Position numbers and translations under genes: made by a program. A stretch of 64,000 nucleotides of DNA from NCBI RefSeq assembly GCF_036365525.1, contig NC_090375.1, positions 95,606,512-95,670,511 on the forward strand. Direction: 5' to 3'. The stretch's first letter is position 1. Every line of letters starts with the position of its first letter. Origin of the DNA: Heterodontus francisci. Its lineage: Eukaryota. The notes below the pieces were generated by a model. The model saw nothing but the letters and a program-made list of their open reading frames with translations. It was not told the origin of the DNA and made no database searches. Positions 1 to 62,880 of the stretch are shown in pieces.

Positions 1-2870
1 ACCCTGCAAAGTCCTCCTTACTAACATCTGGGGGTTTGTGCCAAAGTTGGGAGAGCTGTCCCACAGACTAGTCAAGCAACAGCCTGACATAGTCATACTC
101 ACAGAATCATACCTTACAGACAATGTCCCAGACACTGCCATCACCATCCCCGGGTATGTCCTGTCCCACCGGCAGGACAGACGCACAGAGGTGGTGGCAC
201 AGTGGTATACAGTCGGGAGGGAGTTGCCCTGGGAGGCCTCAACATCGACTCCAGACCCCATGAAGTGTCATGGAATCAGGTCAAACATGGACAAGGAAAC
301 CTCCTGCTGATTATCAACTAAAGCCCTCCCCCCCACTCAGCTGATGAGTCAGTACTCCTCCATGTTGAACAGCACTTGGAAGAAGCACTGAGGGTGGCCA
401 GAGCGCAGAATGTAATCTGGGTGGGGGACTTCAACGTCCATCACCAAGAGTGGCTCGGTAGCAGCATTACTGGCCGAGCTGGCCGAGTCCTAAAGGACAT
501 AGCTGCTAGACTGGGTCTGTGGCAGGTGATGAGGGAACCAACAAGAGGGGAAAATACACTTGACCTCGTCCTCACCAATCTGCCTGCCTCAGATGCATCT
601 GTCCAGGACAATATTGGTAGGAGTGACCACCGCACAGACTTTGTGCAGACAAAGTCCCGTCTTCACATTCAGAATTACCTCCTTCGTGTTGTGCAGCACT
701 ACCACCGTGCTAAATGGGATAGATTTTGAACAGATCTAGAAATGCAAAACTGGGCATCCATGAGGTGCTGTGGGCCATCAGCAGCAGAATTGTACTCAAC
801 CACAATCTGTAACCTCATGGCCCAGCATATCCCCCACTCTACCATTACCATCAAGCCAGGGGACCAACTCTGGTTCAATGAAGAGTGCAGGAGGGCATGT
901 CAGCAGCAGCACCAGGCATACCTCAAAATGAGGTGTTAACCTGATGAAGCTGCAACCCAAGACTACTTGTGTGCCAAACAACATAAGTAGCATGCGATAG
1001 ACAGAGCTAAGCGATCCTATAACCAACGGATCAGATCTAAGCTCTGCAGTCCTGCCACATCCAGCCATGAATGGTGGTGGACAATTAAACAACTAACAGG
1101 AGGAGGTGGTTCCACAAATATCCCCATCGTCAATGATGGTGGAGCCCAGCACATCAGTGAAAAGGATAACGTTGAAGCATTTGCAACGATGTTCAACCAG
1201 AAGTGCCGAGGGGATGACCCATCTCAGCCTCCTCCTGAAGTCCCCCGCATTACAGAAGCCGTCTTCAGCCAATTTGATTCACTCTGCGTGATATCAAGAA
1301 ATGATTGAAGGCAATGGATACTGCAAAGGCGATGGGTCCTGAGAATATTCCAGCAATCGCCCTGAAGACCTGTGCTCCAGAACTTGCTGCGCCCCTAGTC
1401 AAGTTGTTCCAGTGCAGCTACAAGACTGGAATATACCCCGCAATGTGGAAAATTGCCCAGGTATGTCCTGTACTCAAAAAGCAGGACAAGTCCAACCCAG
1501 CCAATTATCCCCCCATTAGTCTGCTCTCAATCATCAGCAAAGTGATGGAAGGTGTCGTCGACAGTGCTTTCAAGTGGCACTTACTTCACAATAAACTGCT
1601 CACTAATGCTCAATTTGTGTTCAGCCAAGGCCACTCAGCTCCAAACCTCATTCTAGCCTTGGTTCAAACATGGACAAAAGAGCTGAACTCAAGAGGTGAG
1701 GTGAGAGTGACTGCCCTTGACATCAAGGCAGCATTTGACTGAATATGGCATCAAGGAGCCCTAGCAAAACTAGAGTTAATGGGAATCAGGGAGAAAACGC
1801 TTCGCTGGTTGGAGTCGTCCCTATCGCAAAGGAAGATGGTTGTGGTTGTTGGAGGTCAATCGTCTCAGCTCCAGGACATTACTGCAGGAGTACCTCAGGG
1901 TAGTGTCCTAGGCCCAACCATCTTCAGCTGCTTCATCAATGACCTTCCTTCAATCATAAGGTCAGAAGTGGGGATGTTCGCTGATGATTGCACAATGTTC
2001 AGCACCATTCCCGACTTCTCAGATACTGAAGCAGTCCATGTAGAAATGCAGCAAGACCTGGACAATATCCAGGCTTGGGCTGATATGTGGCAAGGAACAT
2101 TCGTGCCACACAAGTGCCAGGCAATGACCATCTCCAACAAGAGAGAATCTAACCATCTCCCCTTGGCATTCAATGACATTACGATCACTGAATCATCCAC
2201 TATGAACATCCTGGGGGTTACCATTGACCAGAAACTGAACTGGAGTAGCCATATAAATACTGTGGCTACAAGAGCAGGTCAGAGGTTAGGAATCCTGTGG
2301 TGAGTAACTCATCTCCTGACTCTCCAAAGCCTGTGCATCATCTACAAGGCACAAGTCAGGAGTGTGATGGAATACTCTCCACTTGCCTGGATGGGTGCAG
2401 CTCCAACAACACTCAAGAAGCTCAACACCATTCGGGACAAAGCAGCCCACTTGATTGGCACCCCACCCACAAGTATTCACTCCCTCCACAACCGAGGCAT
2501 AGTGGCAGCAGTGTGTACTATCTACAGGATGCACTGCAGCAACGCACCAAGGCTCCTTCAGCAGCACCTTCCAAACCCCTGTGACCTCTACCACCTCGAA
2601 GGACAAGATCAGCAAATGTGTGGGAACAAATGAAAGTTCCCCTCCAAGCCACACACCATCCTGACTTGGAACTATATCGCCGTTCCTTCACTGTCGCTGG
2701 GTCAAAATCCTGGAACTCCCTTCCTAACAGCACTATGGGTGTACCTACACCACCTGGACTGCAGCGGTTCAAGAAGGCAGTTCACCACTACTTTCTGAAG
2801 GACAATTAGGGATGGGCAATAAATGCTGGCCTGGCCAGTGATGCCCACCTCCCAGGAACGAATTAAAAAA
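1..2870 (+). mobile_element. CR1-group non-LTR retrotransposon 'LINE-A', ORF2 (APE endonuclease + RT) broken by stops/frameshifts, 3' tail present, runs off the window 5' end
   Basis: Motifs PDIVILTESYL, WVGDFNVHH, LDLV, SDH, ALDIKAAFD, GVPQGSVLGP, FADD; 3' tail ggacaattagggatgggcaataaatgctggcctggccagtgatgcccac followed by an A-run. Confidence 0.93.
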
Positions 2871-3314
2871 TATGTAAAATGATGCCTGAACTTGCTGCAA
2901 GTGGCTGCTGTCGATGCCTATCGAGCACTCGGCCTAATATGGTGTAGTTCGCCCTTCTGGTGGAGAATATTGCGCTACTGAATTCGACTTTGTCGCGCCT
3001 ATTTTGGATCTCGAGAACATGTGAGACACATCACAATTTCGACCTCCTGGTGTAAACAAACAAAATGCGCATGTGTGCAAAGGAAGGAAATTTGAGGAAC
3101 ACTTGTACTCCCCCAATGGAGTTGGAATATCTCAGGGTGATGTTCAAAGAAACATTGGAGTCCAAGTAAACAAGATGCTCAACATGTTCAACCAATACAG
3201 AGCAACAACAGCAAAACCAATAGAATGCTGAACTTCATGACTGAAACAGTAGATTGTAAGTAAAACTGTGTGCTCAAACGCAATGCCCTGGTCAGACAAC
3301 ACCTTGAGTACTGC

Positions 3315-3659
3315 TTTTGCTGCTGTTCAATATTCAGTCTGTTAACACCTTTTCTGTACTAATGCTTTATCTTTCAACACACCATTAACATATTGTTTGC
3401 CTTTGCCCCATGACCTTTTGGTCAGCTATGTGGCCTTGTCCAATCTACACCTTCTCCTTTGTTATCTCTTGCCCCACCCCCACCTCACTTGCTTATAACC
3501 TGTGACATTTTTAATATTTGTCAGTTCCGAAGAAGGGTCACTGACCCGAAATGTTAACTCTGCTTCTCATTCCACAGATGCTGCCAGACCTGCTGAGTGA
3601 TTCCAGCATTTCTTGTTTTTATTTCAGATTTCCAGCATCCGCAGTATTTTGCTTTCATT
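3315..3659 (+). mobile_element. Penelope-like element 3' fragment with a 14-bp TSD
   Basis: Direct repeat accttgagtactgc at 3301-3314 and 3660-3673; module gaagggtcactgacccgaaatgttaactctg...cacagatgctgccagacctgctgag recurs at 23650, 25000(-) and 41910. Confidence 0.75.
3523..3559 (+). ncRNA. Minimal type-I hammerhead ribozyme-like motif (variant core CCGAAGA)
   Basis: agtt-CCGAAGA-a-gggtca/c/tgaccc (perfect stem II)-GAAA-tgtt-aact; stem I agtt/aact. Confidence 0.55.
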
Positions 3660-5264
3660 ACCTTGAGTACTGCGATCAGTTCTGACAAACAAAGGAGACA
3701 ATTCTGGAGACAGTGCAGAGAACAGCCATGAGGCTGATCTATAGTGTCAGGAGTCTTAGGTTATGAGTAAAGATCAGAGCGATTTGGGCTTTTCAGCCTG
3801 AAAAGGAGATATGTGAGAGGTGATTTGTTTTGGGATATGAGATAGTGGGGAAGGAGGGAGAAAGCACATATTGTTCGCTGGATGGAGGGTTGGTAGCTGA
3901 AGGGTTTGAGGCGCCCACTTTATAAAACATCTTATCCTCTGGTTCACCATGAGCATCGCTGGTGAGATCCATTCCAATTAGAATAAGGTTAAATAATAAA
4001 GAGGAACAGCCCAATTTTGGTTCAGACTTATGTTTACATTGGATTTACATTGAATTTGGCTTATTAATATTGCAATAAAGAACTGAAAATGCTGGAAATG
4101 CATAAATGGTTCTGGTGGGACTCTTTAACTGTAAGATAAAGGTTAAATTTCTGGTGGGATAAAAACATCACTGTCAAAGTGAAAAGTAGATTCCGATCAC
4201 TAAAGTAACTAAGACAAAGGCAGTATTGAGAGAAATAAACTCAAGGTTTTAGGTCAGGTTTGGTGTTAAAGAGTGATGAATGAGGGCTGGAAGTTTTTCT
4301 GTCAAGATATTTAAGCAAAACCTGATGTGATCAGGCCTGTTAACTTCGCCTGAGCTTGACTATTTGGCTCAGTACAATACTTGCTCATATTAAGTAGATT
4401 TAATTTGAAATATCTTCATGGTGGGGGTGGGGGTGGGGGGGGGGGGTGGTTGGTGGGGTGAGGGTGGCAAATATGACTTTTGGGCTCCCAACCACCGGAG
4501 CCTGTGATGAAGTGACAGCTGTGATTTTGAGTCCCTGTTCTCACTTGAGTCACCAAAAGGGTGTCCTGATGACTGCAGCTCACTGGATTAAAGCTGACTA
4601 ATATTGGACCACACCAACCAGCAGCAAGTTAACTGTGTTTGGTGGTGAGGTGGTGGGGGGGGGGAGAGGCAGGGTGGGTGGTTGAGAAGGGGGCGGTGAG
4701 GTGGAGGGTGGGGGTGAGAGGTGCATTTGGAATTGTGGGTGATAATATGCCAGATTATTTATCTGAGGCATAGACGAAGCAGGCCCCACAAACATAATTT
4801 GAAACTTGTCCCTGATAGGCCTTTACATCTTTGTTGCCCATGGAACCGAACCTAAAATAGCAACCAGGGTCCGAAGACACTGATTTCTGATTTGCATGAT
4901 AGAAGCATCCTATCACCTGAAACAGGCAGGTGTTTTGAGTGCTCAGTGGGAGACTCCTTTCAAAATGGCACTGGCCACATCTGTTGCTGCTTTTTAAAGG
5001 TTGCCTGTTTGCTCAGATCTACATTTTCACATAATGTAATCCATAGAGGCAATTAAGGCTGAACTTTGCCCTCTATCATTCAATCTTACGTTCAAATTTC
5101 AAAGATTTTATAAAACCTGTATATTAAGGAAACGGCAAAAACGCCATTGGAAAATGAAATTCCATAACTGGTTTATATATTAAGAATAACATTAGATACT
5201 TGTAAAATATTTGAAAGTAGTAATCCAATCCCTAGTCGGATCTTGTGCTCAAAACTCAAGGTTG

Positions 5265-5622
5265 ACATTTCAGTGCAGTACTGAGGGAATGATGCACTGT
5301 CAGAGGTACTATCATTCAGATGAAACATTAAACCAAGGCCTGTCTGCTCTTACAGGTGGACGTAAAAGATACCATAGCACTATTTTGAAGAAGAACAGGG
5401 GAGTTATTCCTGGTGTTCTGGTCAATATTTATCCTTCAATGCACACTACACAAACAGATAATCTGGTCATTATCACTTTGCTATTTGTGGGAGTTTGCTG
5501 TGTACAAATTGGCTGCTGCATTTCCTACATTACAACAGTCACTACATTTCAAAAAGTACTTCATTGGCTGTAAAGAACTTTGAGTTGTCCGGTGATCATG
5601 AAAGGCATTATATAAATGCACG
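5265..5622 (+). mobile_element. Deu-domain SINE (SacSINE1/AmnSINE-like) with L2-type tail
   Basis: cagtgcagtactgaggga...ctggtcattatcac..gctatttgtgggagtttgctgtg...gaaaggcattatataaatgca; second copy at 42200-42490. Confidence 0.75.
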
Positions 5623-20680: not shown

Positions 20681-23247
20681 TTCAGATTTCAGCCAGCTTT
20701 CCACTAGTACAAATATTGATGAAACTTTAGGATTTATTGTTCCAGGGTAAGTTGCCTAAATATTGAATGAATGGTAAAGCTTAATTTAGAGCTTTCTGCA
20801 ATCAAATGTGAGTTTTATTAACTTACACTGTTCCCAATGGGCTTCCATTCTATATTATGTTGTGCCATATAAATTCTCAGGCTTCGTAAGCGAGTGAAAG
20901 ATTCAGAGTTCTGCTATATTCACTTGGACAGATATCAATGGCTGACATGACTACCAACTCCATTAATTATCACCAAGTGCCTAGAGTGGTGTCTGTAAGT
21001 TACAGTAAATCAGTATAATTTTCCATTTGGTAGCTGTCAGACCACAAGGAACTCTTAGGTACAGTGATGTTGAAATAATGTTACAGAGCAAGAGAAACAA
21101 ACTGAAGAATACAATGTTGAGCCACAGAATCTATGTATCATAGCTGTAAAAATTCAATGCTTTTCAACATCTGACTCCTCTGTTTTTAAGCTAATGGAGC
21201 CACATTTGTTCTTGGAAATCCATTACTTTTCCATAGTGGTTAACTTACAATTCCCTAAAGCCTAATGATTTCATTTAATTCCAGTATTTATTTCATTTTG
21301 TGGCATTGCCTCATAATTTTGGTTTATCTTGGACATTTATTTGCAATATTAACAAATCTACTCGGCCTTCAAAGAATGTTCTGAAAGGTTTACATAGCCT
21401 CCTCAGTCGGCTATTTATTCATTGGAATTTCAGGACATGATTCCATCCGTGTTCTGTTACTTTCCTGACTACCTTTCCTACCAACTGTTGGTTGATTGCA
21501 GATATCTCAGGCTTCAGATGTCAACACAGTCAGATATTTTTATTTGAAAGGCTATAACTTCCATGCAATGTTTGGATTGCTTGAATTTCAGGTCTTTTTT
21601 CTGATCAAACTTGCTTTCATAATTAGTTTCACCAGCTCACCCCCTTCTGCAGTGTGCAATGCATTCACCAGCATGTCATAAATGTCGCACAGACTTGCCA
21701 GCAATATCAGACCATAAAGCCAAGCAAAGCATTTGTGTGCCTAAAATTAGAGGTTATAGGGTTCTTCTTTCTTTTGGGCCTCCTTATCTCGAGAGACAAT
21801 GGATACGCGCCTGGAGGTGGTCAGTGGTTTGTGAAGCAGCGCCTGGATAGGGTGCTGATTGAATTAATCACAAGGCAATAAAAGCTCCTGGACCAGAGGA
21901 AGAGGCACTTTGTGGCCTCTTTTTCTGCCCATTTTGAAGCTGACAAGAGCAGGAATCAGCTGTCCTGCCAGCTCCCTCAGCCACCAGCTTCCTGTGGACA
22001 AAGGATACCATGACAAATGGAAATGATGGTTAATGATGCATTAATGCTGAAACAATGTTGGGTGTCAGGAATGCCATTGGGTTCCTAGCATCCAGTGGTA
22101 CTAAGGAGGCAGAGAGGGGGATCCCAGTATTAAACAGCTGCCTTCCTAAATTGCACTAGACAAAGTGGATAAATTAGAAGGTGAATTTCCACTGGGGTTC
22201 TTCTGCTCATCTGCTGTAATTGTGGCAAAGGATACTGCAGAAAACTGAGCTAAATGGCTTAGATTCACCAACTTAAAACAAATTAGGAATAAGCAATTTT
22301 TTTTCTGCAGTCATGACTATTGGCCAGGCTTTTGCAAAACAAGTACCAAAATATTTGCTTCCTCCACCCCCAATACCACCAGAAGTGGGTGATCATGTGG
22401 CTCGATAAATACTTCTGGGAGTCCACCACTACCACTGTTAGGGACACATCAACACGTGGAAGACTTGTCCTAATGCACATCCAGTGGGAACCTTACCAAA
22501 GAAGAAAATCTAGGCTTTACTGTACACAAAGCTTTTCTATATTTTAAAGCTTTGTGGAGGACTAAAATATTGTTTTAAAATTCTACTCACTTTAAGAGAG
22601 GCTAGCAATTATATAAATCATCAGTAAAATGGTGGCACAACAAACTCTTTCACTTGGTGTTCAGTAAGACCATCCAGCACCTGTTTTACAGAGAATTATG
22701 TTTGGGTGCCAATCACAAATGCTAGTAGTTATAATTATATGTGCTGCACTGATAATATTTAGTTGCAATGTTTCAGATGCAGATTTGTACTATTGCAAGT
22801 CAGCTGATCTTATGTACTTCAAGAATTTTGTAGCTCAAATTTACAATATGCTGTTTTATATATACTTGATTCATCATAAGCTTTATAAAATTAAATCTTT
22901 GAAAATTAATATCCATATATTGGGATGACTCTAAGGCTCACTTTGCAATTGCATTGTAAGATTTCTAACAGAAGTAGAAGTTTGTCAGAAAAATATTCAG
23001 TCTTTCACAGTTTAATAAACTCCTGTGTTTATATAAAATAAATCTAGCCCTTCAAAAAAAAAGCACGTAATCTGAAATTTAATAAGCTTGTTACAATTTG
23101 GGTTTCTTTTCAAAATGTTTTTCTTGTACTCACCAAAAGAGTCAGCTTCCACAGGCCAATCTGTGATTTCTATCAGTGAAACTTGACTGATCCATGAAGT
23201 ACAGCAGGGTAAACAACATACTTTTATACTATTAAGTTAGACACATT

Positions 23248-30381: not shown

Positions 30382-30770
30382 GCTCTGCAAGGGGTTCAGG
30401 GTCTCGGGGGGCTCTGAAAGGGGTTCGGGGTCTCAGGGGCTCTGAAAGGGGTTCAGGGTCTCGGGGGCTCTGCAAGGGTTTCGGGGTCTCAAGGACTCTG
30501 CAAGAGGTTCGGGGTCTCGGGGGCTCTGCAAGGGGGTTCAGGGACTCGTGGGCTCTGCAAGGAAGCTCAGGGTCTTGGGGGCTCTGCAATGGGGTTCGGG
30601 GTCTTGAGGGCTTTGCAAAGAGGTTTGGGATCTTCGGTACTCTGCAAGGGGGTTTGGGGTCTTGGAGGGGTTGCAAGGGGTTTGGGGGCTCTCCAAGGGT
30701 TCATTGTGGGTGTGGGGGCAGGTGCGGGGGCTCTGCAAAGGTTCAGTGTGGGTGTGGGGGGGGGGTTGCA
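30382..30770 (+). repeat. G-rich minisatellite, unit about 26-29 bp (gctctgcaaggggttcggggtctcggggg), inside the Harbinger element
   Basis: About a dozen degenerate tandem copies read directly, grading into a gtgggtgtgggg variant. Confidence 0.9.
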
Positions 30771-32492: not shown

Positions 32493-34560
32493 TTAATACA
32501 TTTGCGGGTGCTCAAATCTGGTGTGATCCAGCAGCAGCTGCTGATCAGGATGCCCCTTAGCCTGCGATGACTTTGGCTGGTGTCCTCTGCCTGCCTGAGG
32601 CCTGGAAGGCTCCGGCTGCCTGCGGGTATTCTGGACTGGTGCAGGACTCCTCTGAGGCGTCGCTGCTTCTGCAGCTGGGCTCACTGGCAGAGGGGCTGAG
32701 GAACCTGTGGTCACACTTAGAGCATCCTCAGGGGAGCCCCCAAATGTGGCTGTCAGCCTCTCCTCCTCCCTTTGAAGGCTCTCTTGAGTCTCCCAGCTCA
32801 CCAGAGAAGTATTAGGAGCTGGAGAAGCCTCCAGGCTCTTGTTTCTTCTCTCACCTTGCTGCTGCTGCATCGAGCTCATGGCCAAGATGTTGGTGTGCAG
32901 CATCTGTGGGATCTGGCTCTCCATGTGGGTCACCAACCTCTTGATGGAGCAATCTATGCATTCATAGGCCTGAGACATGGCAGCAGTCATGGCATAGATG
33001 GCTTCCTCCATCGTCTGCTTATGGTTGCACATGACCTCTGGCATCTCTACCATTTGCTGCCATATCCCTCTCTGCAACTCCAGCATGTCCTGTGCTGTTG
33101 ACACCAGAGGGTCATCATCGGCCTGGGGCTCAGCATGGGCCTGGCCACCCACAGTCCTCCGACTGTCCAAGGCCTTGGTTGTCTCAGCCTCTGCCAGCTG
33201 CTCAGGTGCATGTGTGGTGCTCTCACCAGCTTGTGACCTTGATTCTAATGCCGAGCAGGTATACACTGAGGTGAAAGTATCTGCACTACAGAAGGGTGGA
33301 GAGAGTCATGGGATGGAGCTCTTCTTCAGAGGTGGACGACTGTCCCCATGTGGCTGCGGACCCCTGCAAATGGCAATCTGCATGAGAAAACACAAACATG
33401 TGAGGGTTAGGTTGTGTAGTTCTCCTGATGCCAACTATGCATGATGTGGGTCTCCAATATTGATGCACATGCCGATGGGAGCCAATCTTCACTCTCTTGT
33501 GCGGAGATTCCAACCCCCCTGTCTGATATTGCAGGGCTGCCATGAGTGCTCGCCAGCTCCAAGGCCTCTTCCTCAGGGAGATGAGTGGATGTAGATCTGG
33601 GAGTCCTCTGTCTGTGTGGGCCGTATCCTGGCTGCAGGCCATTCATATATGGTGTCTCACCACCTGCACATCCTGCCTTTTAACTAGCCTTGAAAGTACC
33701 TGAGCTGGTGGTGGTGAGTGTGAGAGAGTGTGACGAGAGAGCGTGACAGTGTTTCCTCTTCATCACTGTCTTCATGCTCTTGGGGAAAGCAAGGGATGCA
33801 TGCTTACACCGTCTGCAGCTTGTAAATCAGAACAGATTGTAGGATGAGGTGTAAGTGGGATGTGAGAAGCAGGATTTGGTATAAGTATACTGCCATCTTC
33901 AATGCTTTCAGCCCTGCTCCTGGCGATGGCCTCAGTCATGACTGTTCCAATGATGGCGAGCACCGTCTCCTCCATGCAGGTAAGGACATACAACTATTCC
34001 TTTTTCACCACCAATTAGGTCCTGCTGCCTCCAGTTATGTGCCCCCTTGCAAATGAAGTGTGCCAGTGAGTGGTGTGCAATGTATTTGGGTGATGTGGCT
34101 GTCATGGTTGAATTAGCTAGCAATGTGTGCAAGCTGTGACACTTTGTTGTAAGGTTTTTAGCAGTGCTAAGTGTGTGAGGGTGAGGTGAAGCTATGAATG
34201 TTATGTATGAGTCGTGATTGATAGAGATTGTGTGCAGGTGAGTAATGACGGTGCGGTGCATTTAGCAGCGTGTGAAGCTAGTGGTGCAGCCGTTGAGATT
34301 TGGCAAATGAAATTGAATTGACCTTGGTCTTTTGTGTGAGGTCATTGAGCTTCTTGCAGCACTGCATTCAAAGCCCCCGGAGCTAGAATCCTAGCATTGA
34401 AAGTCACAGCTATCTGCCTTCGCACAGTTTGTCTGGAGGACCTCCTGGCCCCCTGAGGATGTAGGACACCTCTCCTCTGGTCCATCTCTTCCATCAAGGA
34501 ATCTAGACTAGTGTTCTCTGCCCTGTTGCATCGTGATTCAATGTTCTTCTTGCTCACACT
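32493..34560 (-). pseudogene. Harbinger second gene: multi-exon Myb/SANT-like DNA-binding protein, degenerate
   Basis: SLDSLMEEMDQRRGVLHPQGARR..QIAVTFNA.. then QCCKKLNDLT after a frameshift; long low-complexity last exon (ORF 32493-33266) after a ttgcag acceptor near 33363. Confidence 0.75.
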
Positions 34561-44009: not shown

Positions 44010-47000
44010 CTGCTGCAGACACTGTGACACATCAGGGAGGGGGAAAGTTACCTGGATACTTTGTACCAAGAGGCGGTCACACCCCTAAGGCAGAGTCTTC
44101 TGACTTGGTTAGTGGTCAGGGACAGGAGAGTGTGGCTGCAGCTGAGGCAGGTAAGGGACTCCATAGGGCAGGCGTGCAGGAGCCTTAGCCTTTGCGATTG
44201 TCTGACAGGTTTGAGGTTCTTTCAGCTTGTTTGGATGAGAGTGGGGACTGCAGGTTGGATGAACTAACTGACCATGGCACCATGGTACAGGAAGCCATTC
44301 AAGTGGGGAGAGCAAAAAGAAATGTAATGATAGTAGGGGACAGCATATTTAGGGGGATTGACACTGTTCTCTGCAGCAAAGAGCAAGAGTCCAGAGGCTG
44401 AGTTGCCTGCAGGTGCCAGGGTTCGGGACATCTGCTCAGGGTTGCAGAGGAACTTACAGTGGGAGGGGGAGGATACAGTCCTCGTGGTCCATGTAGGTAC
44501 CAATGACATGGGGAGGACAAGGAAGGAGGTTCTGCATAGTCAGTATGAGGAGCTGGGCACCAAATTATGAAGCAGAACCTCAAAGGTAATAATCTCTGGA
44601 TTATTACCTGAGCCATGTGCAAATTGGCATTCGGCAAATAAGATTAGAGAAATTAATGCATGGCTCAAAGACTGGTGTGGTAGAAATGGGTTCTGGTTCA
44701 TGGGACACTGGCACCAGTACTGGGGAAAGTGGGGGCAGTACTGTTGGGACTGTACACCTGAACTGTGCTGGGGCCAGTGTTCTAGAGAGCCGCATAACTA
44801 GGGTAGTAGAGAGGGTTTTAAACTAAATAGCGGGGGCAAGGGATCAAATTTGGGAAGATATGGTAAATCAAAGAGTAGAGACTAGGCATGAGAGAAAGGT
44901 ATTAATATGGGAAATGATAAATCGATCATGACAGGAAGGGATAGAAAGTACAAATCTAACAGTAAATCACCAGTCAGAGCTAGACGTTCCAAAAATAATG
45001 AAAAAACTAAACTAAAGGCTCCATATCTGAATGCATGTGGCATTCGAAACAAAACAGATAAACTAATTGCGCAAACAAAAATAAATAAGTACGATCTGAT
45101 AGCCATTACAGAGACATGGCTGCAGGATGACATAGATTGGGACCTGAATATTGAAGGGTATATGGCATTTAGGAAGGACAGGAAGCTAGGAAAAGCTGGA
45201 GGGGTGGTTCTGTTAATTAATGATGGTATTAGTACATTAGAGAGGGATGACCTAAGTTCAGGAAACCAGGATGTTGAAATGGTTTGGGTTAAGATGAGAA
45301 ATGATAAAGGCAAGAAGTCACTTGTGGGAGTGGTGTACAGACCCCCTAACAGTAAACACATGGTAGGACAGAGTATAAAGGAAGAAATTTTGGGAGCTTG
45401 TCAGAAAGGTACGGCAATAATCATGGGGGATTTTAATCTACACATAGACTGGAAAAATCAGACTGGCAAAGGTAGCCTAAATGAAGAGTTCATAGAATGC
45501 TTTTGGGATAGTTTCTTAGAACAGCACGTTCTGGACCCAACTGGAGAGCAGGCTATATTAGACCTGGTATTATGCAACGAGATAGGATTAATTGATGACC
45601 TCATAGTGATGATGCCCCTAGGTAGCAGCGATCATAATATGATTGAATTTTACATTCAGTTTGAGGGAGAGAAGAATGGGTCCAACACTAGTATTTTAAA
45701 CTTAAATAAGGGCAATTATGAGGGCATGAAAAAACTAGCTAAAGTGAACTGGCAAATTAGGTTAAGGGATAGGTGAATAGAGATGCAGTGGCAGACATTT
45801 AAGGGAATATCTCAGAATACACAGGATGGATACATTCTAATGAGAAAAAAAATTCCTATGAGAGGATCCACTATTCGTTGTTAACTACAAAAGATAAAGA
45901 TAGTTTCAAAATTAAAGAAAAAGCATATAATTGTGCAATGATGGGTGGCAGGTCAGAATATAAAGAAGAGCAAAGAATGACTAAAAGATTGATAAGGAAG
46001 GAAAAATTAGCGGATGTGAGAAAGCTAGCTAGAAATATAAAAACAGTACGAGTTTCTATAGATATTTAAAAAAGAGTTGACAAAGTGAGATTTGATCCTA
46101 TAGAAAGGGAGTCTGGTGAATTAATAAGGGAAAATAAGGAGATGGCAGATGAATTGAACAGATATTTTGCATAGGTCTTCATTATAGAGGATACAAGTAG
46201 CATACCAGAAATAGCTGTAAATCAGGAAATGGAAGGGATGGAGGAACACGAGAAAATTACGATCACCAGGCAAGTGGTACTGAGCTGAGTGGTATTGTTG
46301 GAGCTGCGGGCTGACTAGTCCCTGGGTCCTGATGAACTTCATCCTAGGGTCCTAAAAGAAAGGGCTAATGAGATAGTTGATGCATGGTTTCAATTTTCCA
46401 AAATTTCCTAGATTTGGAAGATTTCATTAGATTGGAAAATAGCAAATAGGGAGGGAGACAGAAAGCAGGAAACTACAGGCCAGTTAGCTTAACATCTGTC
46501 TTAGGGAAAAATGTTAGAAGCCATTATTAAAGACGTTATTGCAGGGCACTTGGAAAATTTCAAGGTAATCAGGCAGAGTCAACATGGTTTTGTGAAAGGG
46601 GAATTATGTTTAACCAATTTATTGGAGTACTTTGGAGAAGTAACATGTGCTGTGGATAAAGGGGAACTGGCAGATGTACTGTACTTAGATTTCCAGAAGG
46701 CATTTGATAAGGTGCCGCATCAAAGGTTTTTGCAGAAAAAAAAGCTCATGGTATAGGGGGTAACATATTGACATAGTGGTAATGTCACTGAACAATCCAG
46801 AGAGTTAGGTTAATGCTCTGGGGACATGGGTTCAAATCCCACCATGGCAGCTGCTAGAATTTAAATTTAATTAATTAATAAAAATCTGGAATTGAAAGCT
46901 AGTCTTAGTAATGGTACCTTGAAACTCTCATCAATTGTAATAAAAAAGACCCCATCTGGTTCACTAATGTGCTTTGAGGGAAGGAAATCTGCTGTCTTTA

Positions 47001-48601: not shown

Positions 48602-49907
48602 ACATAAGAACATAGGAACATAGGAAATAGGAGCATGAGTAGGCCATTTGTCCCCTCGAGCCTGCTCCGCCATTCAACCAGATCATGGCTGATCTTCTAC
48701 ATCAATGCTATTTTCCCGCACTATCCCCATATCCCTTGATTTCTTTAATATCAAGAAATCTATCGATTTCTGTCTTGAAATAATAACTGATTCTCGCTAG
48801 TCTCTTGGTTCTTTGGTATTTCTGGGAGGTTTTTTGTATCTTCCTCCGTGAAAACAGACACGAAGTATTTGGTTAGTTTCTCTACCATTTCCTTATTCCC
48901 CTGTCTCTGCCTGTAACGGGCTGACAATGGCTTTGCTAATCTTTTCCTTTTTACATACCTATAGAAGCTTTTACAGTCTGTTTATATGTTTCTCGCCAAT
49001 TTACTCTCATATTCTATTTTCTCCTTCTTTATCAGTTTCTTGGTCCTCCTTTGCTGAATTCTAAAATGCTTCCAATCCTCAGGCTTACTTTATTTTGTCA
49101 ACTTTATAAGCCTGTTCCTTTGATCTAATATAATCTTTATCTTCGCTTGTTAGCCATGGTTGGATCACCTACCCTGTTGGGTTTTTGTGTCTCAAAGGAA
49201 TGTAAATTTGCCGTAAATCATGTATTAATTCTTTAAATGCTAGCCATTGCCTGTCTACCATCATACCTTTTAATGTAGTTTTACAATCTATCACAGCCAA
49301 CTTGCCCCTCATATCTTGGTAGTTTCCTTTGTTTAGATTTAAGACCCTAGTTTCAGATTGAATTATATTACTTTCAAACTTAATGTAAAATTCTATCATA
49401 TTATGGCCACTCTTCCCTTGAGGGTCCTATAGCAGATGATTAATTAGCCCTTTCTCATTGCACAATACCAGATCTAAAATAACCCATTCTCTAGTTGGTT
49501 CCACATCAAATTGTTCTAGAAAAGCATCTTGTATAGATTCCAGGAATTCGTCCGACACAGCATTCGTGCTAATTAGGTTTACCAAGCCTATTTGTAGATT
49601 CAAGTCCCCCATGATTACTGTATTACCCTTGTTACATGCACCTCTAATTTCCTGATTTATATTGTGCCCTATATTATCACTCCTGTTTAGTGTCCTATAA
49701 ACAACCCCTAACAATGTTTGCCATCCATTGCTGTTTCATAGCTCTACTCAAACTGATTCTACACTTCAATCCAAGATCCTCTCTCACTAACATACTGATC
49801 TCATCTTTTATTAACAGTGCTACCTTACCTCCTTTTCTTTTTTGCCTATCCTTCCTAAATGTCAAATACCCTTGAACCTTCAGTTCCCAGCCTTGGTCAC
49901 CCTGCAG
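48602..49907 (-). mobile_element. CR1 LINE (3' tail plus EN region, RT deleted); continues at 54315
   Basis: LQGDQGWELKVQGYLTFRKDR, MGDLNL, HNMIEF; (ttcctatg)n tail at 48602-48625. Confidence 0.88.
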
Positions 49908-50153
49908 ACACCCGGGCAGCATCTTTATCTGGAACAAGCGCAGCAGCCTACAGTCTACCGGAAGCTCGATGCGGAGGAGCAGGTGGCCCGAGTGCCCATG
50001 AGGCGGTCGTCGAGACTCAGGGCCTCAATCCAGCCTTGGTTGCCCTTCCACCGTCACAGCTGGGAGCCGGGAAAGAAGCTCCACCGTGAGCTGGATGGCG
50101 ACCATGAGCGCAGCGTCAGCCTGGAGGACGCCGACATTGAGGAGGCCGTGCAG
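49908..50153 (+). pseudogene. Captured CpG-rich exon resembling the AKAP13/Lbc-family RhoGEF PKA/14-3-3 site region
   Basis: EEQVARVPMRRSSRLRASIQPWLPFHRHSWEPGKKLHRELDGDHERSVSLED aligns by eye with the recalled AKAP13 stretch VP..S.LRSS..SPFRRHSWGPGK..HRS..SLEG; abrupt GC/CpG rise inside a CR1. Confidence 0.6.
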
Positions 50154-50199
50154 GCTGTGGGCTGGCCCGCTCGCCAGGGTTGCGACCCACGCCGGACGC

Positions 50200-50513
50200 C
50201 TCCCCCCTCAATTCACCTTCACACCCCCTTCCCCCCTCGCACCCCCTACCCCCTTGCACCCCCTTCCCCCTTCCCCTCGTACCCTCTTCCCCACTCCCAC
50301 TCGCACCCCCGCTCCCCCTTCCCCTGCACCCCATTCCTCCCCCCCTCCCCCCTTGCAACCCTCTCCCTCCTCGCACCCCCTTCCCTCCTCCCCCTGGTAT
50401 CACCCACTCCCCCTTCCCCCCTGCACCCCCTTCCCCCCACCCACTCCCTCTCTCAACCCCTCCCCCTCGCACCCCCTCCTACTCGCACCCCCTCCCCCCT
50501 TCCCTCTCCCTCC
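50200..50513 (+). repeat. C-rich low-complexity tract (cccctcgcacccc-like units)
   Basis: About 310 bp almost entirely C/T on +, so dense G-runs on -. Confidence 0.9.
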
Positions 50514-53500
50514 ATGAAATCACACAGTTTACTTGTTAGGGCCCCTGCTCAGGGATAGGAGCTAACAATCCCACTGCCTTTTGGGCACGTTGGGTGAGAC
50601 CAAGGCTAAGGGAGTAAACCCTAACAGAAAATCCAGAGCAGAACCCCTCAGGTGGTGATGTGTCACCTTTGGCATATTTCTGGCAGTTCCCGCAGCCATA
50701 CCAGTGCCAAACGTCGTGCTCTGCACTCCTTTGGATCCCACTAGGAAGACCGAGAGGGGGGTTTTGACGCTTGGGCAACTCACAACCTCCATACATTCCG
50801 CCCAGGCATGCTCCATGGAGAGGTCACTCCATAGTCGCCTCACAGCGACCAAAACAACATGGAAGGCAGCAGTTACGGGTTATAAGTCCAGCTCAATTGG
50901 CATAGAGATTGGGCGCCATTGGTTGCCTTTGTCGATGGGAGAGGTCATCGCATCTCACTGGACAGCTACCGCCCGCCTCAAACCGGGCAGCCCCTGGTCA
51001 GTAAGGTTCTGTCCCACCACAGTCCACCTGCTTCAATGGGTGCTTGGAGCTGAGGGTCATTGCCCGACAAGTGGACTGTAACACCGCACCAAACAGCATG
51101 ACACAAAAAGGAAAGAAGGCACCAGCCCTTCGTTTTGGAAGCTGGAACGTCAGAACTATGTGTCCTGGCCTGTTGGAAGACCTTACACAAATCAACGACT
51201 CTGTGAAGACCGCCATCATTAACAATGAGCTCAGTAGACTCAATATGGACATTGCAGCACTTCAGGAGACATGACTCCTGCGAGCGGATCTCTAAGTGAG
51301 AAGACTACACCTTCTACTGGCAGGGCAGGGATCCTGAAGAACCAAGACAGCGTGGAGTGGGCTTCGCCATCAGAAACTCTTTGTTCAGCATGATAGAGCC
51401 TCCCTCAAATGGCTCGGAACGCATACTGTCCATCTGACTGCTCACTGCCTCTGGTCCAGTACACTTACTCAGCATCTATGCTCCAACACTCTGCTACTCA
51501 CATGAAGTTAAAGACCAGTTCTACGAGGAACTCCATAATATTATTAGTAGCATTCCCAATACCTAACATTTGTTCCTGCTGGGGGACTTTAATGCCAGGG
51601 TTGGGGCCGACCATGACTCCTGCCTTGGGCGCTATGCCATTGGAAGGATGAATGAGAATGGACAGAGACTGCTGGTGTTGTGTACCTATCATAACCTCTG
51701 CATCACCAACTCATTCTTTTACAATAAACCCTGTCACCAGGTTTTAATGGAGGTACCCAAGATCACGTCATTGGCACCAGCTAGATCTCATCGTCACAAG
51801 GCGAGCCTCTATAAACAGTGTTCAAATCACATGCAGCTTCCACAGTGTGGACTGCGACACTGACCACTCTCTGGTGTGCATCAAAGTTAGACTCAAACCA
51901 AAGAAGCTGCATCACTCCAAGCAGAAGGGCTGCCCACGCATCAACACTAACAGAATTTCTTATCCACAGCTGTTACATTAGTTTCTAAATTCACTTGAAA
52001 AAGCCCTTCTGCAGGGGATGCAGAGACCAAGTGGGCCCACATCAGAGACACCATCTATGACTCAGCAATGACCACCTTTGGCAAATGTGAGAAGCAGAAT
52101 GCAGACTGGTTTCAATCTCACTTTGAAGAGCTGGATCCTGTCATGGCCGCTAAGCGCATTGCACTGTTGAACTACAAGAAGGCCACCAGCGAGTTAACAT
52201 CCGTAGCACTTAAAGCAGCCAGAAGCGCTGTACAAAGAACAGCTAGGCGCTGTGCAAATGACTACTGGCAACACCTATGCAGTCATGTTCAACTGGCCTC
52301 CGACACCGGCAACATCAGAGGAATGTATGACGGCATTAAGAGAGCTTTTGGGCCAACCATCAAGAAGATCGCCCCCCTCAAGTCTAAATCAGGGGACACG
52401 ATCACTGACCAACGCAAGCAAATGGACCGCTGGGTGGAGCACTACCTAGAACTGTACTCCAGGGAAAATGTTATCACTGATACCGCCCTCAGTGCAGCCC
52501 GGTCTTTGCCAGTCATGGATGAGCTGGACGAACAGCCAACAAAATCAAAACTCAGTGATGCCATTGATACTCCAGCCAGTAGAAAAGCCCCTGGAAAGGA
52601 CGGCATTACCCCTGAAATAATCAAGAGAGTCAAGCCTGCTATACGCTCAGCACTCCATGAACTGTTTTGCCTGTGCTGGGATGAGGGAGTAGTACCACAG
52701 GACATGCGCGATGCCAATATCATCACCCTCTATAAGAACAAAGGTGACCGCGGTGACTGCAACAACTACCGTGGAATCTCCCTGCTCAGCATAGTGGGGA
52801 AAGTCTTCACTCGAGTCATTTTAAATAGACTCCAGAAGCTGGCTGAGCGTGTCTACCCTGAGGCACAGTGCGGCTTTCAAGCAGAGAGATGCACCATTGA
52901 CATGCTGTTCTCCCTTCGCCAGCTACAGGAGAAATGCCACGAACAACAGATGCGTTGCTTTCATAGATCTCACCAAAGCCTTTGACCTCGTCAGCAGACG
53001 TGGTCTCTTCAGATTTCTAGCAAAGATTGGATGTCCACCAAAGCTACTAAGTATCAACACCTCATTCCATGACAATATGAAAGGCACAATTTAGCATAAC
53101 AGTGCGTCATCAGACCCCTTTCCTATCCTGAGTGGCATGAAACAGGGCTGTGTTCTCGCACCTACACTGTTTGGGATCTTCTTCTCACTGCTGCTCTCAC
53201 ATGCATTCAAGTCTTCAGAAGAAGGAATTTTCCTCCACACAAGATCAGGTGGCAGGTTGTTCAACCTTGCCCGTCTTAGAGCGAAGACCAAAGTACGGAA
53301 GGTCCTCTTTGCTGACGATGCTGTATTAACATCCCACACAGAAGAGTGTCTGCAGAGGCTCATCGACAGGTTTGCGGCTGCCTGCAACAAATTTGGCCTA
53401 ACCATCAGCCTCAAGAAAACGAACATCATGGGACAGGACGTCAGAAATACTCCATCCATCAATATCGGCAACCAAGCTCCGGAAGTGGTTCAAGAGTTCA

Positions 53501-54307
53501 CCTACCTAGGCTCAACTATCACCAGTAACCTGTCTCTCGATGCAGAAATCAACAAGCGCATGGGAAAGGAGTCCGCTGCTATGTCCAGACTGGTCAAGAG
53601 GGTGTGGGAAAATGGCGCACTGACACGGAACACAAAAGTCCGAGTGTATCAAGCCTGTATCCTCAGTACCTTGTTCTACGGTAGCGAGGGCTGAACAACG
53701 TATGTCAGCCAACAGCGACATCTCAACTCATTCCATCTTCGCTGCCTCCGGAGAATCCTTGGCATCAGGTGGCAGGACCATATCTCCAATGCAGAAGTCC
53801 TCGAGGCGGCCAACATCCCCAGCATATACACCCTACTGAGCTAGTGGCGCTTGAGATGGCTTGGCCATGTGAGCCGCATGGAAGATGGCAGGATCCCCAA
53901 GGACGCATTGTACAGCAAGCTTGTCACTGGTATCAGACCTACCGGCCGTCCATGTCTCCGCTTTAAAGATGTGGCAAACGCAACATGAAGTCCTGTGACA
54001 TTGACCACAAGTGGTGGTAGTCAGTTGCCAGTGATCGCCAGAGCTGGCGGATAGCCATAAAGGTAGGGTTAAAGAGTGGTGAGTCGAAGAGACTTAGCAG
54101 TTGGCAGGAAAAAAGACAGAAGCGCAAGGAGAGAGCCAACTGTGTAACAGCCCCGACAACCAATTTTATCTGCAGCACCAGGGGAAGAGTCTGTCACTCT
54201 AGAATTGGCCTTTATAGCCACTCCAGGCGCTGCTTCACAAACCACTGACCACCTCTAGGTGCTTACCCATTGTCTCGAGAGACAAGGAGGCCAAAGAAGA
54301 AGAAGAC
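50514..54307 (+). mobile_element. Near-full-length RTE-clade LINE (EN-RT, C-terminal zinc finger), disrupted
   Basis: FGSWNVRT, DIAALQET, LLGDFNARVG, NYRGISLLS, FIDLTKAFD, GMKQGCVLAPTLF, LFADDA, ICST..RVCHSRIGLYSH; (gaa)n tail. Confidence 0.95.
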
Positions 54308-55081
54308 AGTGGAATGGTAATTAGATTATACCTGTTTACTTCTATTTGTGCTCTAAATTCATCTACCTTGTTGCGACTGCTGCGTGCATTTAGATAGAGT
54401 GCCTTTAATTCTGTTTTTATATTATTTTCACATCCTCTAGCCTTATCTGCTGCTGCACTCTTAGGTTTGTATGATCTGTCCCTTCCTGCCACACTCAGAT
54501 TATCAATTCTCTTATTATTACCTTGCTCTCTTCCCTTCTCCTCTCTCTGTAAATGATCACATCTTCCCTCATTTGATCCCTCGCCCCCACTATTTAGTTT
54601 AAACCCCTCTCTACTGCTCTAGTTAGACTCACCAGAAAACTGGTCCCAGCATGGTTCAGGTGAAGACCGCCCCAATGGTACAGCTCCCACTTTCCCCAGT
54701 ACTGGTGCCAGTGCCCCATTTCTCCCATACCAATCTTTGAGCCATGCATTTGACTCTCTAATATTATTTACCCTATGGCAATTTGCTCGTGACTCAGGTA
54801 ACAATCCAGAGTTCATTACCTTTGAGGTTCTGCTTTTTAATTTATCCCCCTAGCTGCTCATACTCCTTACGAAGAACCTCTTTCCTAGTCCTAACTATGT
54901 CATTGGTATCCATGTGGACCACAACAACTGGATGCTCCCCCTCTCAATGCAAGTTCCTCTCCAGCCCTGAGCAGCTGTCCCAAATCCTGGCATCAGACAG
55001 GCAACACAGACTTCTGGACTCTCACTCTTGGCCTCAGAGAACTGTGTCTATCCCCCTGCCTATACTATCTCCTACTATGAA

Positions 55082-60231: not shown

Positions 60232-61745
60232 TTAAAAAAAATTATTTATGGGATGTGGGCATCGCTGGCTAGGACAGCATTTATTGCCCATCCCTAATTG
60301 CCCTTGAGAAGGTGGTGGTGAGCTGCCTTCTTGAACCGCTGCAGTCCATGTGGTGCAGGTACACCCACATTGCTGTTAGGAAGGGAGTTCAAGGATTTTG
60401 ACCCAGTGACAGTGAAGGAATGGCGATATAGTTCCAAGTCAGGATGGTGTGTGGCTTGGAGGGGAACTTGGAGGTGATGGTGTTCCCATGCAACTGCTGC
60501 CCTCGTCCTTCTAGGTGGTAAAGGTCGTGGGTTTGGAGGGTGCTGTCGATGGAGCCTTGGTGCATTGCTGTATTGCATCTTGTAGATGGTACACACTGCT
60601 GCCACAGTGCGTTGGTGGTGGAGGGAGTGAATGTTTGGAGATGGGGTGCCAATCAAGCGGGTTGCTTTGTCCTTGATGGTGGCGAGCTTCTTGAGTGTTG
60701 TTGGAGCTGCACCCATCCAGGCAAGTGGAGAGTATTCCATCACACTCCTGACTTGTGCCTTGTAGATGGTGGACAGGTTTTGGGGAGTCAGGAGGTGAGT
60801 TACTCGCCGCAGGATTCCTAACCTCTGACCTGCTCTTGTAGCCATGGTACTTATATGGCTACTCCAGTTCAGTTTCTGATCAACGGTCATCCCTAGGATG
60901 TTGATAGTGGGGGATTCAGGTTAGGGGTGCGGCACGTTCTGGAGCTCAGGTCTTCAGTACTATTGTTGGAATATTGTCAGGGCCCATAGCCTTTGCAGTA
61001 TCCAGTGCCTTCAGCCATTTCTTGATATCACATGGAGTGAATCAAATTGGCTGAAGACTGGCATCTGTGATGCTGGGGACTTCAGGAGGAGGCCAAGATG
61101 GATCATCAACTCGGAACTTCTGGCTGAAGATTTTTGCAAATGCTTCAGCCTTATCATTTGCACTGATGTGCTGGGCTCCCCCATCATTGAGGATGGGGAT
61201 ATTTTTGGAGCCACTTCCTCCTGTGAGTTGTTTAATTGTCCACCACCATTCATGACTGGATGTGGCAGGACTGCAGAGCTTATATCTGATCCATTCGTTG
61301 TGGGATCGCTTAGCTCTGTCTGTCACATACTGTTTACGCTGTTTGGCATGCAAGTAGTCCTGGGTTGTAGCTTCACCGGGTTGACACCTCATTTTGAGGT
61401 ATGCCTGGTGCTGCTCCTGGCATATCCTCCTGCACTCTTCATTGAACCAGGGTTGATCCCCTGGCTTGATGGTAATGGTAGAGTGGGGAATATTCCAGGC
61501 CATGAGGTTACAGATTGTGGTTGAGTACAATTCTGCTGCTGCTGATGGCCCACAGCGCCTCATGGATGCCCAGTTTTGCCTTGCTAGATCTGTTTGATGT
61601 CTATCCCATTTAGCACAGTGGTAATGCCACACAACACGATGGAGAGTATCCTCAATGTGAAGATAAGACGTCGTCTCCACAAGGACTGTGCGGTGGTCGC
61701 TCCTACCAATACTGTCATGGACAGATGCATCTGCGACAGGCAGAT
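60232..61745 (-). mobile_element. LINE-A copy with the RT core deleted (junction near 60920)
   Basis: ORFs 60294-60890 and 61042-61680 match the C-terminal and post-EN parts of copy 1; tail at 60245-60305. Confidence 0.92.
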
Positions 61746-61789
61746 TATGGAGGAAAGCTCAAGTATGTATCCATTTCAAGGCACACTCG

Positions 61790-62880
61790 AAAATCAATAT
61801 GGGTAGGCCTCAGGCACACAAGGTTAGATGGCAAGGTTTACAATCTATCAAGGTTGAAAACAAAGACAAAAACACATCACGTCTTGATCAGAGAACTCCT
61901 CTATGCTGATGATGCTGTGCTAGCTGCTCACATGGAAAGTCAGCTACAAAGACGCATGGACAGTCTCTCCCATACCTGTAAATTGTTATCCTTGACTATA
62001 GGCGTCAGGAAAACCGTGGTCATGGGACCAGGTGTTGCATGTCCGCCCTTGCTCACACTAAATAACACCCCAATGGAAGTGGTTAGCAAATTCTGTGACC
62101 TTGGGTCCACAATGACAGACCGTGATGCAGAGCTCAATACCGCATAGGGAAAGCAGCTACCACCTTTGGCTGACTTGCGAAACACGCATGGGATAACACC
62201 AAGCTGACCCTTTGGACCAGCTGATGGTTTATAAGACCTGTCTTCTCAGCACCTTGCTGTATAGCTGTGAAACATGTGAAACAGCTACCAGGAAAAGAAG
62301 CTCAATAATTTCCATCTTCGCTCTCTGCGCCACATAATGGGTATATCCTGGCAGGACAAAATCACAAATGTGGCAGTCCTCTCAAAGACAGAGCTACTAA
62401 GTGTGTTGGCACTAATCAAATGGCTTCGATGGATCGGACATGTCCATAGGATGCAAGATGGTCACATACCCAAGGACCTTCTGTATGGTGAAGTAACCGG
62501 AGTCAGACGACCAAAGGGGCTCCCAAAGCTCCACTTCAAGGATGCTTGCAAGCGTAACAAAAAGGCCCTAAATGTTGACTATCGCACTTGGGAGTCACTA
62601 GCTGGCGAAAGAGGGAAATGGCGACACATCCTGTGGACTGGTGTGCACTACCACAATAATCAATTGCTCTAGCAGCTTGGCAACCGGCGTCAATGTCAAA
62701 AACAAAAACTCACAGCATCACCTGGCAGCTTCATGTGCAGCACTTGTGGCAGAACCTGCCTCTCAAGGATTGGCCTTCACAGCCATCAACAAAGGGGCAC
62801 CAAGAGAAGGCACCCCATCTAAATGGATTGTTTGCTGTGTGTCCATCATCTTTCATTGATGGAAGGATTCCAATCAACCA
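61790..62880 (+). mobile_element. Older RTE LINE 3' fragment
   Basis: TRLDGKVYNLSRLK, ELLYADDA, LRWIGHVHRMQDGHIPKDLLYGE, CSTCGRTCLSRIGLHSH. Confidence 0.9.

Follow-up and report, generated by a model that had tools for sequence, protein, structure and literature searches.

Introduction

Exon-capturing retroelement subfamilies have been described from primates, namely SVA_F1, pt_SVA_D6 and a few L1s. Among them, pt_SVA_D6 of the chimpanzee carries exon 1 of STK40 and is present in 94 copies, SVA_F1 of humans carries exon 1 of MAST2 and is present in 84 copies, and many pt_SVA_D6 members have undergone additional 5′ transductions that involve exons of another 8 genes (PMC6139936). Here we analyse a 64,000-nt stretch of the genome of Heterodontus francisci (NC_090375.1, positions 95,606,512 to 95,670,511 of the forward strand; hereafter the window), in which a CR1-type long interspersed nuclear element (LINE) is interrupted by a composite insertion made up of pieces assigned to TUBGCP4 and ARHGEF2, a C-rich tract and an RTE-type LINE. 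The insertion is probably an old member of a multicopy RTE lineage in which host exons were acquired through splicing-linked 5′ transduction.

Other LINEs are also known to be joined to cellular RNA. In humans, 17 mRNA-L1 insertions arisen by 5′ transduction (e.g., RAP1GDS1-L1PA2 and MAP3K13-L1PA5) are reported with 1–4 copies each, mostly single (PMC13174262), and the short interspersed nuclear elements (SINEs) derived from RTEs bear foreign heads such as tRNA, 5S, 28S, snoRNA, 7SL and GC-rich heads of unknown origin (PMC7245038, PMC5786205, PMC4844689). The RTE and CR1 clades are treated as needing their own 3′ ends for copying (PMC3747384); therefore, read-through in cis combined with splicing would be the route by which they could move host coding sequence. 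A multicopy RTE bearing exons from two genes would demonstrate that the route operates in cartilaginous fish, and its copies would give a dated series for testing captured CpG-rich exons as promoters. In addition, scattered RhoGEF-like and GCP4-like fragments can mislead gene annotation and read mapping. Our literature search, which did not extend to the repeat databases Repbase and Dfam or to most subscription papers, found neither a shark or RTE case of exon capture nor a publication combining TUBGCP4, ARHGEF2 and a retrotransposon; the composite family may be deposited in Repbase or Dfam.

Results

The evidence from outside the window consists of protein databases and of one comparison with public contigs from four runs, from which the body of the RTE was excluded. 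X1 and X2 are DNA runs; X9 and X10 are RNA by guess only, so that we make no claim on expression. The coordinates of all features are collected in Table 1.

An initial annotation of the window, made from its letters alone, described a CpG-rich coding-like segment at the left of the insert and took AKAP13 as its parent gene. The segment is present and 49908–50153 does have a RhoGEF match, but the parent is ARHGEF2 and a second gene, TUBGCP4, lying in series before it, had been overlooked. The 97-aa translation matched a single protein among 121 candidates, the ARHGEF2-like XP_067878945.1 (81% over 80 aa, E = 7e-30), and tblastn carried the match on to RRTP at 50201. This closest named protein, a truncated 616-aa model, comes from the horn shark H. 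francisci. It scores 128 bits, as compared with 43–54 for seven tetrapod ARHGEF2 proteins and 34–40 for ten AKAP13 proteins (40 for the best full-length one), and in a tree of 23 rows (the segment and 22 relatives, chosen from 118 stored proteins) a 100/99 split places the segment with ARHGEF2 and apart from AKAP13. Both the scores and the tree thus exclude AKAP13 as the parent gene; the motif pointed out in the initial annotation, PFRRHSWGPGK, is common to both paralogs. In the same tree, the short AKAP13-like models P0007, P0011 and P0015 (sawfish, lungfish, lizard) group with ARHGEF2, and they look like misnamed ARHGEF2 N-termini.

The ARHGEF2 exon seems to be cut short, since the match stops inside a block conserved across vertebrates. 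An in-frame deletion of 9 nt, common to most of the family, follows position 50118, and a parent-type ARHGEF2 mRNA contig aligned to 49953–50200 shows 28 differences and 9 gap letters. The GC content of this part is 0.67 and its observed/expected CpG ratio 0.79 (0.30 for the window). A Pfam search with the 97-aa segment gave no match, and a PDB search with the ARHGEF2 piece returned nothing relevant. The window is almost wholly LINE-derived and holds, within its 64 kb, no further part of TUBGCP4 or ARHGEF2. A resident ARHGEF2 gene containing the segment was rejected because no other ARHGEF2 coding stretch lies in the window; a processed pseudogene is likewise not what is seen, the unit ending in the tail of an RTE.

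The first 46 bp of the insert are unrelated to ARHGEF2 and match gamma-tubulin complex component 4 (GCP4, the product of TUBGCP4) in another frame: 12 of 15 residues are identical over GCP4 residues 12–26 (best E = 0.033), and GCP4 chains are the top five of seven PDB matches. The piece is also matched through 49953 by a contig (depth 144 in X9, 132 in X10), which in X9 extends upstream as HELLLALSG, taken here to be GCP4 residues 3–11. With the GCP4 match continuing in the putative parent transcript, 49908–49953 can be assigned on sequence grounds to TUBGCP4. In humans, exon 1 of this gene presumably ends at codon 26, a boundary that was not confirmed in the literature search.

The position at which the two host pieces meet is defined by matches from both sides. 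The TUBGCP4-type RNA match halts after CAG at 49953, and the parent-type ARHGEF2 RNA contig (X10 record 12, 1,083 nt) aligns from 49953, leaving an overlap of 1 nt. X1 record 2, a DNA contig of depth ~11 with 10 gap letters, aligns from exactly 49954. X1 record 1, a DNA contig of 2,778 nt with 9 gap letters, aligns from 49949 across an acceptor-like TACAG and continues beyond the match in 2.5 kb of unlike sequence; judging from its match coordinates, it may be the ARHGEF2 gene or a copy with its intron. The join at 49953|49954 therefore looks like a splice junction, its boundaries being partly inferred. Among the AKAP13 proteins of skates and rays, a short insertion or deletion occurs 29 residues ahead of the motif shared by the two paralogs, a pattern expected from the use of an alternative donor. 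The reading frames of the two host pieces do not match, so that the cargo would be a 5′ leader, perhaps a CpG-rich promoter, and not a fusion protein; indeed, a fusion protein was rejected as the TUBGCP4 frame meets a stop at 49999–50001. Separately, a contig joint of depth ~11, the same as that of X1 record 2, ties 49954 to position 50495 on the other strand and points to a copy inverted at its 5′ end; a joint also lies at 50180.

The C-rich tract of about 310 bp reported in the initial annotation measures 314 bp, with 207 C (66%), and Tandem Repeats Finder (TRF) gives periods of 18, 23, 33 and 97. X9 record 26 has ~510 nt where the window has 153 (50270 to 50424), and many contig joints fall inside the tract. 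The tract does not start with GT (the first GT is at 50279) and its join to ARHGEF2 has no splice signal. Given the missing GT, the variable length and the presence of the minisatellite in other copies, the earlier description of the insert as an exon plus intron is unsupported: the tract is a variable number tandem repeat (VNTR), not the start of an intron. Positions 50399–50410 code once for ITHS, the residues that follow RRTP in the parent (3 of 2,000 shuffles, a post hoc count); C-rich codons of the exon itself may have given rise to the VNTR, or ITHS is due to chance.

Downstream of the tract, the plus-strand RTE announced for this insert was confirmed at 50516–54306. The summed contig depth is ~16,000 at 50515–50584 and exceeds 200,000 from 50585. 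The open reading frame (ORF) covers residues 1–1044 of a 1049-aa endonuclease and reverse transcriptase protein in four pieces (frames 3, 1, 2 and 1), with at least 3 frameshifts and 10–12 stops in the pieces aligned to three references. Its layout is that of the RTE clade, i.e., one ORF matching from end to end proteins of 1045–1049 aa that have PF03372 and PF00078, no ORF1, and a 3′ untranslated region (UTR) of ~45 nt followed by (GAA)n. The matching proteins carry no clade names, and we call the element an RTE on the basis of this layout. The best named matches of 51098–54248 come from snail, sea star, lancelet, crab, coral, oyster and shrimp (57–65% identity); judging from these sequences, a horizontally moving RTE lineage is possible.

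A working 5′ ribozyme would strip captured leaders from the RTE RNA, and a self-cleaving one is predicted for several RTE families (PMC5786205). In this decayed copy Rfam gave 2 weak matches far below the gathering score and no ribozyme, no descriptor search having been made, and the fold of the RTE 5′ region is not unusual (z = −0.56). A short hairpin lies at 50536–50566 near the RTE 5′ end, and an opposite-strand contig joint at 50532–50568.

The contigs indicate that the composite unit or its parts are present in many diverged copies. At 8 listed positions in 50015–50189 a variant letter occurs in 41–82 contigs of X1 and 44–89 of X2, with a summed depth of 809–5,585 versus 6.6 and 5.1 for the contigs that match the window exactly. 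The 9 nt of the parent type, which restore LEGLED of the shark ARHGEF2-like protein, have a depth of 11 out of 5,916 in X1 and 0 out of 5,796 in X2, but 36.9 out of 53.4 in the putative RNA run X10; most copies would therefore share a deletion that is absent from the gene. Among the listed records, X9 record 26 contains 50016–50270 and 50424–50741 in this order at 9–11% divergence from the window; exon and tract are bridged at 50201 by X1 record 6 and X2 record 20, and tract and RTE at 50515 by X1 record 7 and X2 record 22. Judging from these diverged bridging records, the ARHGEF2–tract–RTE junction is common to several insertions. As for the TUBGCP4 part, a variant at 49945 occurs in 14 X1 and 13 X2 DNA contigs (depth 130–139) and X2 record 17, which is 14% diverged and without the 9 nt, crosses the join to ARHGEF2; the evidence for this junction in other copies is suggestive only. 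Depth rises from ~140 at 49945 to ~250 at 49972 and to thousands from 49990, within the ARHGEF2 part, and such a climb from TUBGCP4 through ARHGEF2 to the RTE is expected from nested lineages and 5′ truncation.

The capture was thus no isolated event: the segment is present in multiple copies, and at other places too it is joined to the 5′ end of the RTE. The possibility, considered in the initial annotation, that the segment is a standard part of the RTE 5′ UTR is correct for a minor RTE lineage, of which it forms the 5′ end, but not for most of the family, which exceeds this lineage in summed depth by a factor of ~40 to 400. The family is also mixed: in X9 record 30 the tract and RTE head follow unrelated sequence, and the 9 nt appear to be retained in some records (X1 records 1, 2 and 4 and X2 record 19 have 9–12 gap letters). 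X1 record 3 and X10 record 13, two copies without the 9 nt, extend upstream for 272 and 234 nt, respectively, in unlike sequence; these upstream parts may be ARHGEF2 intron or further captured exons.

As regards age, the divergence of this copy is 11.3% from the parent-type mRNA (28 of 248 positions) and 9–16% from the other listed copies. Changes from CpG to TpG or CpA in this copy account for 6 of the 13 differences listed for the host part, and for 12 of the 31 tested rows overall (40 of 272 rows were listed, from which 3 CR1 and 6 tract rows were omitted). The retained CpGs had been taken as a sign of a recent event. On the contrary, the CpGs are decaying, and the divergence together with the disrupted RTE ORF indicates that the event is old; the high CpG content reflects the source, not youth. 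The window copy is dead and we claim no function for it.

The insert, 4.4 kb long, splits a single minus-strand CR1 endonuclease domain just as originally claimed: the frame reaches ...YNLITI at 54313 and picks up at LQGDQG from 49907. On either side of the break the sequence is collinear with a copy at 44892–45776 that is not interrupted, residues 1–72 of that copy matching the 5′ part by tblastn, and Pfam Exo_endo_phos_2 matches the 3′ part (E = 2.6e-5). Furthermore, CR1 contigs matching the left flank run into right-flank letters at the listed loose ends behind 49906, 49907 and 49911 (77, 35 and 36 X1 contigs, respectively). The interrupted LINE, which we take to be a CR1, has its 8-bp repeat tail at 48602–48636; near 48780–48817 an internal deletion makes it jump from the linker to the 3′ end, the reverse transcriptase region being gone.

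The pentamer AGACA is indeed found at both edges of the insert, although it is weak as a target-site duplication (TSD). The chance of a common 5-mer at random junction pairs is 7%; moreover, the CR1 family letters at this site are CCATGTCTC or CCACGTCTC in the contigs and ~5–8 bp of CR1 are lost, both of which count against AGACA as a TSD. The left copy can be read as the AG of CR1 followed by insert sequence with one transition, that is, as imperfect microhomology. On the other hand, a short TSD at the composite is plausible, since another RTE 3′ end in the window, an 86-bp 5′-truncated element of the same family (21762–21847, minus strand), has a clean 7-bp TSD, ACCCTAT. The left-junction letters cctgcag, formerly considered acceptor-like, consist of coding sequence of CR1 and, after it, of letters from the middle of the TUBGCP4 piece, and so are not the acceptor of that exon; the exon-type boundary lies at 49953|49954.

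Elsewhere in the window we noted a second, diverged RTE-like reverse transcriptase fragment on the plus strand beside a minus-strand LINE (61614–62672), a G-rich minisatellite with ~11 copies of a 29-bp unit (30382–30701) and, in a GC-richer stretch, a minus-strand open frame of 270 aa of unknown kind (32493–33305), possibly from a DNA transposon. A JGI metagenome scan gave 304 pattern matches that reduced to 1 locus, a chance antisense match within an unrelated bacterial-type ORF.

Table 1. Features of the composite insertion and of the CR1 that it interrupts (positions in the window).
Feature	Position	Strand	Evidence
3′ part of interrupted CR1-type LINE: rest of endonuclease domain, linker, 3′ end with 8-bp repeat tail	48602..49907	-	Pfam and collinearity
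AGACA, possible left TSD copy (5 bp)	49906..49910	+	also CR1 AG plus TUBGCP4 piece with one transition
TUBGCP4 first coding stretch (putative), 3′ part, codons 12-26, 5′-truncated at CR1 junction	49908..49953	+	PDB matches and RNA contig
N-terminal exon fragment of long ARHGEF2 (GEF-H1) isoform, ~residues 90-175 of XP_067878945.1	49954..50201	+	protein match, tree, mRNA contig
C-rich degenerate minisatellite, units ~15-25 nt, many opening CGCACCCCC	50202..50515	+	TRF, unit split
RTE 5′ UTR, start approximate	50516..51097	+	depth rise
Single RTE-type ORF, endonuclease and reverse transcriptase, full length but dead	51098..54248	+	protein alignment, RVT_1
RTE 3′ UTR and (GAA)n tail	54249..54306	+	88% to second RTE 3′ end at 21762-21847
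AGACA, possible right TSD copy, overlaps RTE tail	54304..54308	+	letters
5′ part of same CR1: endonuclease ORF start and upstream ORF end	54309..55078	-	76% to 45110-44330

Discussion

The insert would thus consist of the end of the first exon of TUBGCP4, the start of an ARHGEF2 exon, a C-rich VNTR and a full RTE. The initial proposal of a 5′ transduction or template switch by an RTE stands insofar as RhoGEF coding sequence lies in sense, 5′ of the element and inside one insertion in a single CR1 site, the arrangement expected of splice-mediated transduction; what was carried is not an AKAP13 exon with its intron. The following course of events, based on the junction positions and the anatomy of the unit, appears most likely to us: (i) an RTE with a C-rich head would have been joined to the middle of the ARHGEF2 exon, either because it inserted into a gene copy or through a template switch at a C-rich stretch, and the founder of most copies would have lost the 9 nt; (ii) a unit possessing the acceptor of that exon would have come to lie downstream of the TUBGCP4 promoter, with TUBGCP4 exon 1 spliced onto the ARHGEF2 acceptor and the RNA reading through the RTE; (iii) the RTE's own endonuclease and reverse transcriptase would have copied this RNA in cis from the (GAA)n tail; and (iv) as the window itself shows in outline, a copy cut 5′ within the TUBGCP4 exon inserted into the endonuclease gene of CR1, with imperfect microhomology of a few bases and the loss of ~5–8 bp, and decayed afterwards. 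One fused source locus and serial capture in two steps both fit. More tentatively, and with less than even probability, this RTE lineage could act as a serial exon trap in sharks, the ARHGEF2 acceptor catching the first exon of whatever gene a copy lands in, TUBGCP4 in the present case and other genes elsewhere. If so, each capture would supply a CpG-island promoter to an autonomous, VNTR-bearing composite of hundreds of copies, and SVA-like evolution would have taken place in a non-mammalian LINE thought to copy only its own RNA.

The strongest competitor, which we regard as unlikely, produces the same composite without splicing in cis, through two template switches (from RTE RNA to ARHGEF2 mRNA and then to TUBGCP4 mRNA) or through trans-splicing. 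It would agree with the sense orientation of all parts, with the lack of a splice signal in the C-rich setting of the ARHGEF2|tract join and with the frequent acquisition of foreign heads by RTEs (PMC7245038, PMC5786205); in addition, for 15 of the 17 human mRNA-L1 chimeras no source element within an intron was found (PMC13174262). However, the TUBGCP4|ARHGEF2 join apparently pairs an exon end with an exon start within a 1-nt overlap, and a template switch has no reason to respect both, while trans-splicing still requires an acceptor on the element. Duplication of one block at the DNA level, segmental or tandem, is a poorer explanation and quite improbable. Contigs show insertion sites poorly, and the truncated 616-aa protein model may mark a duplicated region; against this, the window copy has sharp ends within CR1 and terminates in the RTE tail, depth drops toward the 5′ end as in LINE truncation, the copies are 9–16% from the window, and X1 record 3 (272 nt) and X2 record 17 (20 nt) continue upstream in unlike sequence. 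Even less probable is a sequence of independent insertions, with a host-gene retrocopy entering CR1 and the RTE landing beside it: the TSD is weak and nested insertions are common in this repeat-only window, but the host piece has no tail of its own and the exon–tract–RTE order recurs in X9 record 26, which largely refutes it. Finally, a unique, recent capture of one AKAP13-like exon plus intron, to which only the shared motif and the still high CpG ratio could be credited, is refuted as stated by the ARHGEF2 scores, the second gene, the tract without GT and a multicopy, diverged family with a dead RTE, and retains hardly any probability; all that is left of it is a possible derivation of the tract from genomic sequence of ARHGEF2 close to the exon.

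Several points weigh against splicing-linked transduction in a multicopy lineage. On the side of TUBGCP4, the protein match taken alone is modest and the 21-aa piece had no match in Pfam or the ESM Atlas; the variant at 49945 could stem from the second haplotype at this locus, and X2 record 17 has only 26 letters to the left of the join, below the bar of 31 set for such crossings. The exon boundaries are taken from alignment ends, a paralog and the presumed human boundary rather than from gene models. The records with 9–12 gap letters would be copies that keep the 9 nt, which makes more than one founder possible. As for the contigs, the four runs are one sample, possibly the window's own source, and 32 of 11,937 contig pieces and 24 of 1,119 loose ends were listed; among the listed pieces none spans the whole stretch and neither a second full-length copy nor a TSD at another copy was seen, no source locus was seen in the public contigs of the four runs, and summed contig depth is not copy number.

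Splicing-linked 5′ transduction, which we continue to favour, places the composite among several described systems. The RTE itself resembles AviRTE-type LINEs in its single ORF of ~3.2 kb, long 5′ UTR and 3′ UTR of ~40 bp (PMC4844689). Two peptide motifs of the window ORF were absent from all nine supplementary files searched, giving no sequence link to AviRTE, and, unlike AviRTE, the window RTE has its best named protein matches, up to 65%, in marine invertebrates. As in RTE-derived SINEs, RTE sequence stands behind an unrelated piece of cellular RNA and has been amplified; those SINEs, however, are short and non-autonomous, with bipartite RTE ends and mostly non-coding heads, whereas here an entire RTE ORF follows a head of protein-coding exons. 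The human mRNA-L1 chimeras have first exons in sense ending at donors, a near-full-length autonomous LINE and an RNA made from a host promoter, as the shark composite would also have, but they carry one gene each on elements of the L1 clade, and the composite has two genes in series, a VNTR between host exon and LINE, and many copies.

Closest in logic are SVA_F1 and pt_SVA_D6, in which a GC-rich first exon has been spliced to a VNTR-bearing retroelement and amplified as a subfamily, as would be the case here. The SVA elements of apes are non-autonomous and depend on L1 for their movement, whereas in the shark a full RTE-type LINE, which encodes both endonuclease and reverse transcriptase, is the carrier; furthermore, the inner captured piece appears to be a shortened internal exon, and the acceptor apparently comes from the first captured gene and not from the element. 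The full endonuclease and reverse transcriptase ORF also sets it apart from the SVA/LAVA family proper, whose hominoid members combine Alu-like with SINE-R or L1 parts. The composite may therefore be regarded as an analogue of SVA_F1-type transduction, and not as an SVA.

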